Shown here piece after piece: positions 748 to 26,805 of a DNA stretch of 35,706 bases. The notes under the pieces were generated by a model that had not been told where the DNA came from, ran no database searches, and worked only from the letters and a program-made list of their open reading frames with translations. The position numbers and the translations under genes were made by a program. This stretch comes from Candidatus Poribacteria bacterium (lineage in GTDB: Bacteria > Poribacteria > WGA-4E > GCA-2687025), in the NCBI GenBank assembly GCA_002687025.1, contig NYZG01000302.1, positions 1 through 35,706 on the forward strand, read 5' to 3'. Every line of letters starts with the position of its first letter. The stretch's first letter is position 1.

Positions 748-1517
748 CTAATAAGCCATCTTCAGCTGTCCCCAGACGGGAGCCGACTTGCCCACGGCTG
801 ACACGGGACGCACATCCAGGCGCGGAATCCCGGCGCCACGGATGCGGACATTGTCGTAATGCACGATCGTGTCTTGACCATCCAGCGCCACCGTGCCCTG
901 CTTGTAGGCCTCATCCTCAACTTCAACGAGCAATTCCCCGTCGTAAAATGCCCGGACAGCGATTCCGTCAAACGTCAACTTGACGGTATGGAACCCGCCC
1001 GCCCCAGGCTCGTAGGCGCCTTGGGCCAGAGTCACACGACCGACGTTGATGTCCCAACCGGCGTTGCCATACAGGTTGACAACTCTGTCCGACGGAAACA
1101 GCCACACCGCATAGTTCGAGCCCGTATCCAGGTCGACTCGCCCACGGAGTCCTCCCGCGTAGTTCGCCGCCGCTGCATGTAGCACGTCCACCTCGAACTC
1201 GTAATCCGTCCATGCGCTGGGGCGCCCACGCGGAGCCCGTCGCCGGTGAAACTGAATTGCGAAATCGCCTGAGCCCATGGCACGTCTTGGGGGTCGAAGA
1301 CTAGCTCTGCATTCTGGACGCCCCAGAAGATGTCGCTGTCCACGTTCTGTGGTGAGCGTCCCCACCCCGCCGCATCTTCCGCCCTGAAGTCGTCGAAGAC
1401 CTCTCCCGCAGAACTCACAGATGCGAGGACAAGAACCAGGACAGCGACAAGCGAGCCCCTCTGGCGCCGGAGCGTCTCCCTCGCCAAGAACTCAGAAGCG
1501 GAAGGACGGATCATCAT
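748..1517 (-). pseudogene. Secreted DUF1080/3-keto-disaccharide-hydrolase-like beta-sandwich protein, split by a 1-nt frameshift at ~1219-1223 (pseudogene or sequencing error)
   Basis: ATG at 1517 after a purine-rich SD-like stretch; signal peptide 'LVAVLVLVLASVSSA' then 'FDDF...GW'. The frame reads to 'GLRVG' and continues in another frame as 'PSAWTDYEFEVDV...FHTVKLTFDG...FYDGELL...GTVAL...VHYDNVRI', ending 'PVSAVGKSAPVWGQLKMAY*'. Confidence 0.75.
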
Positions 1518-21442: not shown

Positions 21443-22105
21443 ATGCCGAAATCCCTGACGTTCCTACATACCGCCGCGCCGCTGGCGCCTTCGTTCGACG
21501 AACTCGCGTCCGAGATCGCGCCTGACGTCCCAGTCCGACACCTCATCGCCGGAGACCTGCTCGACATGGCTCGCGCTGAGGGCCCTGACGCCACCGCCAC
21601 GCGTTCTCAGGTGCGCGACGCCGTCCTACACGCCGTCGCGGCGGGCGCGCGCGTCGTGCTGTGCACCTGCTCGACCATCGGCGACCCGGCGGAGCGCGCG
21701 GCGGCCGACGCGGACGCGGTCGTGATGCGCGTTGACCGGCCCATGGCGGAGCGCGCCGTCGCGGCGGGCTCGCGCATCCTCGTGGTCGCGACTCTTGAGA
21801 GCACGCTCGGCCCAACGACCGATCTCATACGCGACGCCGCCGCGAAGGCGGGCCGCGACGTGACTGTCTCAACGCTGCTCGCCGACGCCGCGTGGGCGAA
21901 GTTCGAGGCCGGCGACGCGGACGGCTACTACGCCGAGATCGCATCTGCCGTGAAGGCCGGAGCGGGCGACGCCGACGCCATAGTGCTCGCGCAGGGGTCC
22001 ATGGCCCCGGCCGCGGACCTATGCGGCGGCGTGACGGCGCCGGTTCTCAGCAGCCCACGCCTGGGTGTCGAGGCCGCCGTGGCGGCGTTCCGCGCGTCCG
22101 GCTAG
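21443..22105 (+). CDS. Asp/Glu/hydantoin racemase-like protein
   Basis: 'FLHT', 'VLCTCSTIG', 'RVDRPMA', 'VVATLESTLGPT', 'IVLAQGSMA', 'PVLSSP'. Confidence 0.8.
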   Translation: MPKSLTFLHTAAPLAPSFDELASEIAPDVPVRHLIAGDLLDMARAEGPDATATRSQVRDAVLHAVAAGARVVLCTCSTIGDPAERAAADADAVVMRVDRPMAERAVAAGSRILVVATLESTLGPTTDLIRDAAAKAGRDVTVSTLLADAAWAKFEAGDADGYYAEIASAVKAGAGDADAIVLAQGSMAPAADLCGGVTAPVLSSPRLGVEAAVAAFRASG

Positions 22106-23397
22106 TTCGCTCCGTGTTGACGGAGTAGCTCGACGACCTCTGGGTGTGGCGCCGGACCGAGATCGCGCGTCGCGCCCCAATCGCCAGGTGTGTCCGACTT
22201 GTGGTAGCCGTTCGGGAACCGGTCGATGTAGCCCAACGGCGTCACGTCCCGAAGTTCCTCTCCGACGCGCACGTCTGCGCGCGCGTTCACGTCCGCGCCG
22301 GATTCCATGAGCAGTTTCAGGACGTCCCAGCTCACGTTGCAGTTCGTCGTCACCCCGTGGAATACAGGCGTGTGCGTGTTGAACCCGTCTGGAGCGGGCA
22401 TGGCACGGACGTTGGGGTCGGCGCCGCGCCCCAGCGGGAGCCGCGCCTCCTCGACCCAGCCGTATTCCGCGCAGTGGTGCAGGAGCGTCGTGTTCACCAA
22501 TGGCGCGCCGCCATAGACCGCGCCAAACTCCAGTTCGACATCTCTCCCGCCGCGCAGGTCGAAGGGCGCGTTCACGAGCGACGGGTCCGCCCGAAGCCGC
22601 TCGACCAGACGATCCATCCGCCCCGTCAGCAGGTCGTACAGGGCGCTGTCGTCGTGATCGGCTCCCGCCTCGACGAGGATGCGCGCGACCTGTTGGCGGT
22701 TGGGGTTGAGGCACGGATAGGTGTGGAGGCCGTTGTGCAGGGGCGACCACTTGATGCCCGCGCGCCGACAGTCGGGGTCCGCGCCGTTCTCGATCATCCA
22801 ACGCACCCCCTCGACGTTCAGGTCTTCGGTCAATTGGTAGAGGTGCTCGTGGAGATGGTGGACCTCTACCGCACACCGCTCCAGCAGATGGTCGGCCACG
22901 TCTGTTCTGTCTCTGCGCAGGCAGTGGTAGAACACGCCGGGTATGTCGACCTGGCTCTGGGTGCCGTGGCCCAGCAGGACGTCTACCAGCGGCACTGATC
23001 CGCAGGCCGCCGCGTAGCACAGGAGATCCACGGCGCCGCGCCAATGTAGGAACCCGCGCCAGTGCTCCTTGCGGCGGAGCCAGCCCAGGTCAGCCTGTAC
23101 TATCCGGTCCAAAGCCTCGGGATCGTCGCTCAACACGGCCGCCTCGACGAGGCGCAGGTCAGATCGCGCGTACTCCGTCATCGCGCGCCACGTCCCAAAG
23201 CCGTATTCGAGCGCGAGGACGTGCTGCGCGTCGGCGAGCTGCATCTCGCCCTTGCGGGTGTCGCCGGATCGTGGATGGCGATCCATTCGTGCGAGCGCGT
23301 CGGGGTCGTCCGCGCGGAGCGCCTTTAGCAGCGCCTTCGCTTCCTTCTTCAGGTGTTCGAGGCTGGGATTCGTCGGAAGTTGACGCACGGCAGGCAT
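22102..23397 (-). CDS. Ankyrin-repeat protein with N-terminal 'LPxxPSLEHLKKEAK...LADAQxxLAxEYGFxxW' domain
   Basis: ATG at 23397 after GAGAGGG; ankyrin repeats 'WSPLHNG...ILVEAGAD', 'TLLHHCAEYGW...GRGADPN', 'HTPVFH...LLMESGADVNA', 'VTPLGY'. Confidence 0.88.
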   Translation of the reverse strand: MPAVRQLPTNPSLEHLKKEAKALLKALRADDPDALARMDRHPRSGDTRKGEMQLADAQHVLALEYGFGTWRAMTEYARSDLRLVEAAVLSDDPEALDRIVQADLGWLRRKEHWRGFLHWRGAVDLLCYAAACGSVPLVDVLLGHGTQSQVDIPGVFYHCLRRDRTDVADHLLERCAVEVHHLHEHLYQLTEDLNVEGVRWMIENGADPDCRRAGIKWSPLHNGLHTYPCLNPNRQQVARILVEAGADHDDSALYDLLTGRMDRLVERLRADPSLVNAPFDLRGGRDVELEFGAVYGGAPLVNTTLLHHCAEYGWVEEARLPLGRGADPNVRAMPAPDGFNTHTPVFHGVTTNCNVSWDVLKLLMESGADVNARADVRVGEELRDVTPLGYIDRFPNGYHKSDTPGDWGATRDLGPAPHPEVVELLRQHGAN

Positions 23398-23530
23398 AGT
23401 CAACCCTCTCTCATCGTCGCGCCCGTTGTCCGCATAGCCGGGCAGACAGAAGGTTGCGTCGTACCGCGGCCGGGTGAAGGTGGGCTAGGCCCTTTACGCG
23501 GACCGACGGCTCCCTTTCGAGCTCCAACCC
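23398..23530 (-). ncRNA. Candidate structured 5' leader RNA (pseudoknot plus anti-SD stem) of the ankyrin gene
   Basis: GUCCGCGUA (23503-23495) is complementary to UAUGCGGAC (23436-23428), which lies in the loop of the GCCCG/CGGGC hairpin; CAACCUUCU pairs with SD-containing AGAGGGUUG; TTGACA at 23559-23554 upstream. Confidence 0.6.
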
Positions 23531-23675
23531 TCTATCGGCCGTGGAGCGGACGATGTCAACCATGTCGTACACCATGCCATCCCCGGTGCATCCCCAGCGT
23601 GGGGACTGTGGGAGCGGCCGCCATGCGGCTCACCAGCTACCCGCCACCATGTGATGCGCACAGAGGAGACTTGAC

Positions 23676-24173
23676 GTGACCGCGACCGCAGACGCCGGCC
23701 CGGGCCCAACCGACGCCCGAGGAGAGATACGCCCCTTCGATCCGGCGGACGAGACCGCGACGGCCGAAGTCTGGCATCGATCCGGCCGCGCCGCGTACCC
23801 CTACCTTCCGACCTGGCAGGCCTTCCCCCTCGACGACGCGCGAGACGTCTTCCGCGACGTCATCATGCAGGAGTGCCGACTGTGGGTAGGGACACGCGAT
23901 GGCGAGATCGTCGCATTCTTGGGCATGGAGGGGTCTTACCTCGACCGCCTGTACGTCGATCCGGCCGAATGGCGACGCGGGTGGGGCGGCCGCTTCGTCG
24001 TTCTGGCGAAGGACGTCAGCCCGGACGGGATCGAGCTATACACGCACCAGGAGAACTACGCGGCGCGCGCGCTGTACGAGCGGCACGGCTTTATCGCCGT
24101 TGAGTTCGGGATCAGCCCGCCGCCTGAGTCGGCGCCCGACGTGAAGTACCGATGGAGACCACGGCCGTCCTGA
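23676..24173 (+). CDS. GNAT-family N-acetyltransferase
   Basis: 'LDRLYVDPAEWRRGWGG' (motif A), 'LYTHQENYAARALYERHGF'; GAGGAG SD. Confidence 0.9.
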   Translation: MTATADAGPGPTDARGEIRPFDPADETATAEVWHRSGRAAYPYLPTWQAFPLDDARDVFRDVIMQECRLWVGTRDGEIVAFLGMEGSYLDRLYVDPAEWRRGWGGRFVVLAKDVSPDGIELYTHQENYAARALYERHGFIAVEFGISPPPESAPDVKYRWRPRPS

Positions 24174-24976: not shown

Positions 24977-25239
24977 CCCGCGTCTCCTCCGTTGACTCTC
25001 GCCCCAGGAACACCCCTTGCCGCCCAAGGCACATGTTGACAGTAGCCGACGCGCGCGCCAATCACACACGCCGGCCTCCAGCCGACGAGCCCGCTGCGCC
25101 CAAGCCGCGGATGACCCCAACGGCCTACCATCGAAACACCTCCCGGCCGACGGCCGCGGCGCGGGTGTGGCCGATGCAACGCGGAGCCCGCGACGGACGT
25201 ATGGCCGGACACGACGTGGCAGAACCCAGAGGAACCCCG

Positions 25240-26805
25240 ATGGACTTCGTATCCGGCCCGCCCGAGGTGACGCTCATCGACGCGACCGACCGGCCGTATG
25301 AGACGGCCGTCGGCGCGGCGCGGACCTGCTACTCCTCGCGCGGCCTGATCCTGCCAGACCAGGTCTCCGGCACGCGGAAGGCACGCGCGTTGCGCGACCG
25401 CATCGCGTCCAGCACCCTCACGGCCGGCCACCTGACCACGCGACAGCATGCGACGTTCATCTTCGGCATCGACAAGGTGTCCCGCGCGGCCGTCTGGTCG
25501 TTCCTGCACAGCCACCCGTTCTACAACTCCGAGCAGGTGAGTCAGCGCTACGTCGAGGTGCAGCCCGGCACGTACGCGGTCCCGAATCTGGAACCCGAGG
25601 CGCTAGACATCTACGAGGCGACGGTGCGCATGCAGACCGAAGCGTACCGACGTCTCATCGAGCTGCTCGAACCGACCATCCGCGACGAGTTCCACACGCT
25701 GTTCCCGGCCCGCGCCAAGCGGCCCGAGCGTTGGGGACGCTACCTCGAACGCAAGGCGTACGAGGTCGCCCGTTACGTCCTGCCCGTCGCGACGTACACC
25801 TATCTCTACCACACGGTCAGCGCGCTCACGCTGATGCGCTACGCGCGTCTTGCGTCGTACTTCGACGCCCCGACGGAGCAGCGCGCGCTCATCGAAGCAA
25901 TGCTCGCGGCCGTTACCGCACAAGACGAACTGTTCACCCGCGAGTTGGACGACCCGATACCCCTGGATCAGACGCCTGAGTACACGTTCCTCGCAGGCGT
26001 GGACCCGCAGACGCGGCAGGCGCGCGCGACGGAATACAGACGCGACTTCGACGCCCGTCTGGACGGCCACACGTCCATCATGATCGGCCACGCGCAGAAC
26101 GCTGAACGCACGCTCGCGGACGCGGTGCGCGGCGTCCTGGGCGCCCCGGAGAGCGCCCTCCCGGACGGCGAGGCGCTCGCGCTGCTCCTGGACCCCTCGC
26201 GCAACGCGTACTACACCGAGACGATGAACGTGCACACGCTCACGAAGATCTCCCGGGCGATGAACCACGTGAACTACACGTTCGCGAAGAAGCTCAGCCA
26301 CACCGCAGACTCGCAGGACCAACGGCATCGGATGGTCCCCGCCTCCCGACCCGTGCTGAGCGCGGTCTACTCCGGGGCTCCCGACACAGTGACGCCCAAG
26401 CTCATCGCCCTGAACGAAGCGGCGCGCGAGGCGTACGACGACGTGAATTCGCTCGCATTCGAGAACATCAACAGACTGCTCGACGCCGGCGTACCGGACG
26501 AATACGCTTTCTACCTCCTGCCCAACGCATATTCGATCCGCATGATCGAGTCCGGCTCGCTGATGGACCTGCACCACAAGTGGCGCACGCGTCTCTGCTA
26601 CACGGCGCAGGAGGAGATATTCCACGCCTCCGTGGACGAGGTGGAGCAGGTGCGCGAGGTCCACCCGACAATCGGCAAGTACCTCCACGCCCCATGCTGG
26701 TTCCGCATGGAAACGCCGCAGACGCCCTATTGTCCCGAAGGCGACCGGTTCTGTGGCGTGCCCGTCTGGAAGCTGCAACCAGACGCCTTCGAGCGTGTCC
26801 TCTAG
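25240..26805 (+). CDS. thyX: FAD-dependent thymidylate synthase, tandem two-domain type
   Basis: Domain 1 'ARTCYS...GHLTTRQH.TFIFGIDKVSR...EQVSQRYV...EVARYVLP'; domain 2 'SHTADSQDQRHR...YLLPNA...RLCYTAQEEI'. Confidence 0.88.
   Translation: MDFVSGPPEVTLIDATDRPYETAVGAARTCYSSRGLILPDQVSGTRKARALRDRIASSTLTAGHLTTRQHATFIFGIDKVSRAAVWSFLHSHPFYNSEQVSQRYVEVQPGTYAVPNLEPEALDIYEATVRMQTEAYRRLIELLEPTIRDEFHTLFPARAKRPERWGRYLERKAYEVARYVLPVATYTYLYHTVSALTLMRYARLASYFDAPTEQRALIEAMLAAVTAQDELFTRELDDPIPLDQTPEYTFLAGVDPQTRQARATEYRRDFDARLDGHTSIMIGHAQNAERTLADAVRGVLGAPESALPDGEALALLLDPSRNAYYTETMNVHTLTKISRAMNHVNYTFAKKLSHTADSQDQRHRMVPASRPVLSAVYSGAPDTVTPKLIALNEAAREAYDDVNSLAFENINRLLDAGVPDEYAFYLLPNAYSIRMIESGSLMDLHHKWRTRLCYTAQEEIFHASVDEVEQVREVHPTIGKYLHAPCWFRMETPQTPYCPEGDRFCGVPVWKLQPDAFERVL

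Follow-up and report, generated by a model that had tools for sequence, protein, structure and literature searches.

Does the intergenic region upstream of an ankyrin gene in Candidatus Poribacteria specify a regulatory RNA, and, if so, to what would that RNA respond? The region lies on contig NYZG01000302.1 (assembly GCA_002687025.1), whose whole analysed length of 35,706 nucleotides is called the window here. An earlier note, made from the letters alone, had proposed that the minus strand carries a pseudoknotted leader that buries the Shine-Dalgarno (SD) sequence of the ankyrin gene. Comparison with homologous leaders from many phyla bears this out, through model matches at 79 of 80 loci, counts of paired positions and a signal that 0 of 500 shuffles reach, and the leader very probably represents a real class of structured cis-regulatory RNA. 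It spans 23395-23522 (minus strand) and consists of four helices, P1 to P4, and two pseudoknots, PK-A and PK-B. From its sequence and distribution we infer that it belongs to a new, widespread class of cis-acting RNAs of the 5' untranslated region (UTR) that would control the initiation of translation.

Architecture of the leader

The elements of the window copy, in the order in which they occur in the RNA, are:

23509..23522, minus strand: P1 hairpin, GCUC (23522-23519) with GAGC (23512-23509), loop GAAAGG
23513..23516, minus strand: 5' strand of PK-A, AAGG, in the P1 loop
23498..23503, minus strand: 5' strand of PK-B, GUCCGC; the pairing extends to 23495 only in the window copy
23497-23493, minus strand: conserved junction (G)GnAA before P2, here GUAAA
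23482..23492, minus strand: P2 hairpin, GGGC-CUA-GCCC
23477..23480, minus strand: 3' strand of PK-A, CCUU, directly after P2
23457..23476, minus strand: variable linker, containing CGACG, not conserved
23445..23456, minus strand: 5' strand of P4, the anti-SD CAACCUUCUGUC
23421..23443, minus strand: P3 hairpin, GCCCG (23443-23439) with CGGGC (23425-23421)
23433-23428, minus strand: 3' strand of PK-B, GCGGAC, in the P3 loop
23401..23412, minus strand: 3' strand of P4, with the SD GAGAGGG (23410-23404)

All of the sequence elements listed in the earlier note are present on the minus strand where it had placed them. The stem CAACCUUCU (23456-23448) / AGAGGGUUG (23409-23401) is part of P4, which covaries across the family and buries the SD; in the window it goes beyond the 9 bp originally noted, to 11 pairs and one G-G mismatch (23456-23445 with 23412-23401). 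The 9-nt pseudoknot proposed between GUCCGCGUA (23503-23495) and UAUGCGGAC (23436-23428) is indeed complementary, and six of its pairs, GUCCGC/GCGGAC, occur family-wide as PK-B; the other three (G-U, U-A and A-U) are unpaired in 37-52 of about 87 sequences and fall away. A helix between CGUCG (23508-23504) and CGACG (23461-23457), also part of the earlier proposal, is paired in only 28-31% of cells and is not a family feature. The stretch CCUUCACC, described as unpaired, contributes CCUU (23480-23477) to pairing with AAGG (23516-23513) in the P1 loop, and this pairing is PK-A.

Comparative evidence for RNA structure

The leader DNA matches sequence upstream of paralogues in its own genome and in relatives, at 75-86% identity. 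The genes concerned share an N-terminal domain, and a search of the species-genome collection with an alignment of that domain (A1) returned 267 relatives, of which 80 were kept. These come from Poribacteria (the nearest 75% identical), Gemmatimonadota, Acidobacteriota, Planctomycetota, Verrucomicrobiota, Chloroflexota, Actinomycetota, Myxococcota, Alphaproteobacteria (Inquilinus), Spirochaetia and Armatimonadota. The covariance model R1, derived from 10 poribacterial leaders, encodes nested helices only and no pseudoknots. Its matches have E values from 1e-8 to 1e-37, and in every member the modelled segment stops at the AUG, with the register fixed to the start codon.

Pairs were counted on 95 and then on 86 model-aligned leaders from many phyla. 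Among the 95 leaders 88.3% of cells are paired, compared with 76.4% in shuffles, and among the 86 the figures are 83.7% and 72.3%; in each case 0 of 500 shuffles reach the observed value, and slid controls give 42-50%. In the set of 86, 37 of the 42 pairs show changes on both sides. By element the counts are:

P1: 4 pairs, 92% of cells paired, 2 of 4 pairs change on both sides
P2 (GGGC/GCCC): 4 pairs, 100% of cells paired, all 4 change on both sides
P3 (GCCYG/CRGGC): 5 pairs, 97% of cells paired
P4 (anti-SD/SD): 12 pairs, 90% of cells paired, all 12 change on both sides
PK-A: 80% of cells paired (86 leaders)
PK-B: 89-94% of cells paired (94% over 6 pairs)

PK-A forms between the final 4-5 nt of the P1 loop and the nucleotides directly after P2. 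One of its pairs occurs as AU 54, GC 11, CG 5 and UA 3 times and the next as CG 29, GC 16 and AU 8 times, and its variants include AAGG/CCUU, CAGG/CCUG, GAGG/CCUC, CCGG/CCGG, GGGG/CCCC and CAAG/CUUG. PK-B (GUCCGC/GCGGAC) is nearly invariant, with the rare compensatory variants GUCGGC/GCCGAC, GUCCGUG/CACGGAC, CACGUGC/GCACGUG and GCUCGC/GCGAGC. Because both pseudoknots lie outside the search model, the alignment was not fitted to them; taken alone they are 87.9% paired, where shuffles give 80.7% (0 of 500 reach the observed value) and slid controls 33-46%. G-U pairs are frequent on the sense strand of the gene (for example UG, 22-26 times per P4 pair), so the signal lies in RNA of that strand. 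The family consensus reads GC-P1-GC..CC.GUCCGCGGnAAGGGCnnnGCCCACC...CYnYUUU..GCCYG(n5)GCGGAC(n2)CRGGC...RARGRRG(n5)YAUG, in which the core (GUCCGC, GGnAA, GGGC/GCCC and GCGGAC) is invariant and the outer helices covary. The earlier note had named the lack of conserved or covarying structure upstream of homologues as grounds for abandoning the leader; covarying structure is what the 86 leaders contain.

This comparative evidence is decisive for a structured leader, unlike the fold of the single sequence. Judged from the window alone, the fold is no better than chance, with minimum free energy (MFE) z-scores of -1.53 for 23390-23560 and +0.13 for 23385-23526, which begins at the presumed 5' end. 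In the MFE structure of 23390-23560 the anti-SD strand pairs with a further copy of AGAGGGUUG, located upstream at 23533-23525; this copy was rejected as a switch partner because it overlaps the -10 region and is absent from paralogues. This exact second copy of the SD-containing 9-mer (minus strand), in the region of the -10 element and the transcription start site, would pair with the anti-SD if transcribed and is missing from the paralogues; it is probably due to chance, and it could make expression of the window copy leaky if transcription starts further upstream. A first RNAalifold consensus, in which PK-B was nested and the GGGC of P2 paired with the GCCC of P3, was also rejected, because P2 and P3 covary as local hairpins.

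The leader accompanies a single protein domain

The association between the leader and the N-terminal domain, which is about 80 amino acids (aa) long, was examined in both directions. At loci chosen by the protein domain only, R1 matches immediately ahead of the start codon at 79 of 80, the exception being L041. Starting from the RNA, 231 matches were examined, 225 of them assessable, in sets that were not de-duplicated against each other, and the leader precedes the domain in 216. Both counts tie the leader specifically to the family of genes for its presumed binder, and the earlier note's statement that leaders of this kind also stand, in other phyla, before genes encoding this N-terminal domain is borne out in more than 10 phyla. 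The ratios of RNA matches to domain genes in individual genomes are 10/10, 16/17, 3/3, 4/4 and 1/2. The sets examined from the RNA were:

Own genome: 5 of 6 matches lie before intact domain genes
Five complete genomes, new matches: 2 of 3 before domain-ankyrin genes, 1 before a GNAT gene (Microlunatus)
Actinomycete class, new matches: 11 of 12 assessable; 1 before an ankyrin gene without the domain, a 13th at a contig end
Five further genomes, new matches: 20 of 20 linked to the domain, one via an operon
Best loci in the phylum of genome G196: 27 of 29 with the domain, the other 2 with only its first residues
The 40 lowest-scoring listed matches in the phylum of G196: 36 of 40 with the domain, 2 of them after a FliG_C open reading frame (ORF)
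A 22-base core pattern alone, all species genomes: 115 of 115 assessable among the matches listed

The five further genomes contain 26 matches in all, 16 of them in one Gemmatimonadetes metagenome-assembled genome (MAG), G196. Leader carriers make up 58 of 151 genomes in the phylum of this MAG, with about 189 matches, from which the lowest-scoring were picked on purpose; the four that lack an intact domain comprise one FliG-like gene with a domain stub only and three orthologous SnoaL-like genes. The carriers number 13 of 151 genomes in the actinomycete class and 22 of 151 in the phylum of the window itself, where G002 has 10 copies; the largest number of copies per genome is 16. The core pattern has at least 120 matches, and five of those listed have 100 nt or less of downstream sequence and are not assessable; in the 80 loci measured the domain starts 72-156 nt past the pattern. 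A search of five genomes for mimics of this core (rRNA and other genomic sites) yielded numbers of matches close to those of the reversed control in four and about double the control in G042, with no repeated site in any. Cultured carriers include Streptomyces sp. P1-3, several Amycolatopsis, Nonomuraea typhae, Microlunatus parietis DSM 22083 and Inquilinus spp., which makes laboratory study feasible.

The leader is present whatever lies upstream of the gene. No transporter and no biosynthetic or pathway operon lies downstream in any gene set examined, and no candidate partner gene recurs in the leader flanks; the GNAT neighbour of the window gene is not recurrent among the flanks of 180 loci.

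Several loci depart from the usual arrangement. In Microlunatus parietis (L108, G042:C1:5702233-5702374) a full leader (53 bits) lies directly before a GNAT acetyltransferase gene without the domain, which may, from its sequence, be followed by a MerR-like gene. A second Microlunatus locus (L179, G042:C1:1640700-1642000) has a domain gene with only the 5' half of the leader (P1, the 5' strand of PK-B and P2; 13.5 bits), the 3' part being shortened. The three orthologous domain-less proteins behind the leader at L212, L214 and L215 (G438, G437 and G455) have a hydrophobic N-terminus and tandem SnoaL-like/DUF4440 (NTF2-like) matches below the Pfam cut-offs, and their leader core is deviant, with GUCCGCC, not GUCCGCG. 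At L112 the leader stands before an ankyrin gene without the domain. In Gemmatimonadota (L180, G196:C61:35600-37300, and also L200 and L213) it precedes a 96-aa stand-alone FliG_C-like ORF that overlaps the start of a gene with two copies of the N-terminal domain and FliG_C, and PK-B at these loci is the compensatory variant GCUCGC/GCGAGC. The sixth copy of the own genome (G000:C390:6602-6742; locus L101, 1501-1641, minus strand) leads into no more than the first 17 domain codons and then a broken frame, lies ahead of a 456-aa repeat protein in another frame and has degraded PK-B strands; it looks like a decayed or rearranged cassette. Back-to-back leaders with divergent domain genes are found in a Gemmatimonadaceae MAG (L056, 837-974, minus strand, and 1052-1185, plus strand). 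On a Candidatus Poribacteria chromosome (L024/L010, OZ245030.1, about 1189-1455) the domain gene behind a leader of 116 bits is interrupted near codon 43 by an in-frame stop, which, going by the sequence, may reflect a pseudogene, a sequencing error or recoding.

A basic helical domain with many fusion partners

The first 80 residues of the window protein recur at the N-terminus of five other genes of the same genome. The family comprises 10,072 representative clusters at E<=0.001 (clustered at 50% identity), and the domain nearly always occupies residues 1 to about 85, frequently as 2-3 copies in tandem; it starts at or before residue 18 in 145 of the 150 best representatives, and stand-alone forms of 86-136 aa exist. 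Its AlphaFold 2 model has five helices, with a predicted local distance difference test score of 76. The domain is basic (mean net charge +3.7), with conserved Lys or Arg at positions 17, 21, 25, 28, 37 and 63, the first four of these along helix 1. It belongs to no Pfam family, has a chance match only in NCBIfam, no PDB sequence match below E 0.05 and no Foldseek match with E<=0.001; none of these resources thus connects it to a recognised RNA-binding fold. A structure search of the Atlas with the domain gave unnamed clusters only, and PADLOC detected nothing beyond a weak match in the ankyrin region.

C-terminal partners were tallied in 104 RNA-linked ORFs:

Recurrent partners: ankyrin 77, FliG_C 6, Clp_N+BFN 2, HhH 2
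Single cases: sigma-54 AAA+, sulfotransferase, ClpS, FHA, GGDEF, DUF2442, GNAT
Seen outside the 104-ORF set: LRR, T2SSE, Lon-N, glyoxalase, FliM

A methyltransferase is also listed as a partner in the Atlas structure search, as a lead only. This wide spread of partners argues against a shared metabolic theme.

Shine-Dalgarno burial and the possible effector

P4 is a 9-12-bp helix of the anti-SD and SD strands that encloses P3, and the SD stands 5-8 nt before the AUG. The 3' domain (P4 and P3) has a mean MFE of -22.5 kcal/mol, and the SD is paired in 84 of 86 leaders. In a search for anti-anti-SD sequences, the anti-SD strand paired best with the GnAAGGG junction in about 40% of leaders, with a mean of -8 kcal/mol.

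The comparison of leaders shows an RNA that folds into a 5' domain (P1, P2 and PK-A) and a 3' domain (P4 enclosing P3), which PK-B ties together by pairing GUCCGC upstream of P2 with GCGGAC in the P3 loop. In the mechanism that we propose, an effector would bind the nearly invariant core formed by PK-B, the GGnAA junction and P2, and in doing so would lock the knotted fold and keep the ribosome off, making the leader an OFF switch. The effector may be the basic helical N-terminal domain of about 80 aa that the regulated genes themselves encode, giving an autogenous feedback. This feedback would possibly operate in cis on the mRNA under translation, since the domain leaves the ribosome ahead of the rest of the protein, and each message would then pass through a single round of translation or a few. 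Promoter, leader and N-terminal domain would together constitute a portable cassette that has been fused to many C-terminal domains. We tentatively prefer the domain as effector, slightly ahead of a small molecule and short of an even chance, because the link between RNA and domain is near one-to-one in both directions and independent of the rest of the protein, and because the domain is N-terminal and basic. The fuller proposal, that leader and domain are the two halves of an unrecognised portable RNA-protein cassette in which a new RNA-binding domain clamps the leader of its own mRNA, with more than 15 kinds of effector domain in more than 10 phyla, is on balance unlikely.

A number of observations weigh against this mechanism. 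The helices P4 and P3 are very stable by themselves, the strongest rival pairing for the anti-SD strand reaches a mean of only -8 kcal/mol, and no alternative ON fold proved to be conserved among the leaders. The domain resembles no known RNA-binding fold or solved structure. The leader also stands before domain-less genes (the GNAT gene of L108, the SnoaL-like genes of L212, L214 and L215 and the ankyrin gene of L112), so the effector must be able to act in trans, which is natural for a small molecule. An invariant core with freely covarying outer helices is also characteristic of riboswitch aptamers, and the tight gene link could reflect simple co-inheritance of the 5' end of the gene.

The principal alternative is a small-molecule or ion riboswitch, a substantial possibility if a doubtful one. 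The double-pseudoknot core would be the aptamer for a metabolite or signalling nucleotide, the ligand would stabilise PK-B and hence the P3-P4 platform so that translation is turned off, and the domain family would be the regulon or would bind the same ligand. As in riboswitches generally, a conserved and covarying aptamer-like structure occupies the 5' UTR, and an expression platform appears to be coupled to it, with the SD inside P4 in 84 of 86 members. The invariance of GUCCGC, GGnAA, GGGC/GCCC and GCGGAC while the outer helices covary is in keeping with this, as are the up to 16 copies per genome, the recruitment of the leader to domain-less genes for small-molecule enzymes (GNAT, SnoaL-like), which needs a trans-acting signal, and fusion partners that include glyoxalase, sulfotransferase and GGDEF, with methyltransferase as the Atlas lead. 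A riboswitch is harder to reconcile with the near one-to-one tie to one protein domain (216/225; 79/80) whatever the rest of the protein, with regulated genes that share no metabolic or transport theme and include no transporter or biosynthetic operon in any set examined, with the few conserved unpaired nucleotides and with the lack of a match to any Rfam riboswitch.

Clearly unlikely, in our judgement, is a leader that answers to another trans-acting protein or small RNA, to temperature, or to the ribosome (standby on the variable linker), or that serves for constitutively low expression or mRNA stabilisation. The SD helix, very stable without an effector, would suit such a role, as would the variable and probably unstructured linker and the want of a conserved alternative fold; but the invariance of PK-B, P2 and the junction over more than 10 phyla exceeds the needs of SD occlusion or thermosensing, no candidate partner gene recurs in the flanks and the GNAT neighbour in the window is not seen elsewhere. 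That there is no RNA structure at all, and that the complementarity arose by chance or belongs to an element that works at the DNA level, for instance an operator or a promoter architecture, is extremely improbable. The folding energy of the single sequence, not better than that of shuffles, and the position between divergent genes fit such an explanation, but it is contradicted by the covariation, with compensatory changes in 34-37 pairs, by the frequent sense-strand G-U pairs, and by an element whose register is fixed to the start codon and which is present whatever lies upstream.

The leader thus stands as an orphan RNA class that is well defined, structurally complex, with two covarying pseudoknots, and very widespread, and it offers an experimental handle on a large uncharacterised domain family. 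Many of the 'eukaryote-like' ankyrin and LRR proteins found in sponge symbionts (Poribacteria) and in soil bacteria begin with that domain. If its own domain acts on the leader, the domain would represent a new RNA-binding fold and the whole a modular feedback cassette; if the leader is a riboswitch, it would point to a new signal that controls the domain-headed proteins.

The locus and its putative promoter

The remaining features of the locus are:

22102..23397, minus strand: ankyrin gene, 431 aa, N-terminal domain and ankyrin repeats (Pfam: ankyrin repeats only)
23395..23397, minus strand: start codon AUG of the ankyrin gene
23158..23397, minus strand: coding region of the helical N-terminal domain of about 80 aa (LPxxPxLExLKKQAK...DAQLVVAREYGFxSW) that travels with the leader
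23554..23559, minus strand: TTGACA, -35 hexamer of the putative leader promoter
23531..23536, minus strand: GATAGA, weak -10-like hexamer, 17 nt past the -35
23676-24173, plus strand: GNAT gene, divergent from the ankyrin gene

The TTGACA at 23559-23554 to which the earlier note drew attention is confirmed in the sequence. TTGAC(A/G), or once TTGAAA, is found at the matching position in 9 of 11 upstream regions compared (the exceptions are L004 and L005), and these nine have in common a spacer of about 17 nt to a TAnnnT-like hexamer and the series of leader elements downstream. The paralogues have CATAAA, TATGCT, TATAGC, TATCAA and TATAAT at the -10-like site. From this arrangement the RNA would start at about 23525-23522. 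Strict consensus scans of the window gave no promoter and no terminator-like site. Elsewhere in the window, 25033-26805 (plus strand) encodes an unusually long ThyX (590 aa) in which two stretches match Thy1; it may be a thymidylate synthase that arose by duplication or fusion.

Comparison with known RNA families

The earlier note had recognised no riboswitch in the leader and had proposed a scan with cmscan, whose outcome agrees. Against Rfam 15 (4227 models, including sul1 and all riboswitch classes), cmscan of 22900-24000 at E<=10 placed no family at the leader, the three matches in this interval being sub-threshold and due to chance (SECIS_3 on the opposite strand, ASdes and PVT1_3), and cmscan of 20 loci from many phyla at E<=1 likewise placed none there. 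The sul1 motif (RF03058) was said in the earlier note to precede genes with a possibly related domain. It resembles the leader as a candidate cis-regulatory motif of the 5' UTR that lacks a known ligand. The proposed link does not hold, as cmscan gave no sul1 match and the genes downstream of the leader encode domain proteins, not sulfur genes. According to PMC5737381, sul1 RNAs precede sulfate transporters and sulfur-metabolism or methionine genes, a context in which the leader is not found, and 'ankyrin' does not appear in the main text of that paper; nor do passages of bioRxiv 10.64898/2026.10.21.760802 mention ankyrin. Text searches of the literature gave no description of the leader; paper supplements (for example those of PMC5737381 and PMC11109978) lay outside their scope and might hold the motif. 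The 8-mer GUCCGCGG also occurs in the beet western yellows virus frameshift pseudoknot quoted in the FARFAR2 preprint, a short coincidence. On these sequence searches the leader is an RNA class absent from Rfam 15 and belongs to none of the systems compared below.

Riboswitches that sequester the SD by means of a pseudoknot include SAM-II/SAM-V, preQ1-II/III, guanidine-III and NAD+-II. They share with the leader a compact H-type pseudoknot in the 5' UTR, a ribosome-binding site within the conserved structure and a translational OFF logic. In contrast, no Rfam model for them matches the leader, which at about 125 nt is larger, has its two domains bridged by two pseudoknots, holds its SD in the long nested helix P4 and not in a pseudoknot, and is tied to one protein domain and not to a pathway.

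Leaders bound by their own product, such as the pseudoknot operator of E. coli rpsO/S15, other ribosomal-protein leaders and the cspA 5' UTR of the cold-shock paralogues, are alike in that one protein family carries the leader on each paralogue and in that the pseudoknot includes or abuts the initiation region. Their proteins are known RNA binders and they are usually restricted to one phylum, whereas the domain described here has no RNA-binding homology, the leader occurs in more than 10 phyla and the remainder of the regulated protein is highly variable. Orphan motifs specific to a gene family, the DUF-named motifs, are said to have been described by Weinberg et al. in 2017, and they too are defined by a position before one uncharacterised protein family; no such Rfam model matches the leader, which is far more widespread, occurring in 58, 22 and 13 of 151 genomes in the three groups surveyed.

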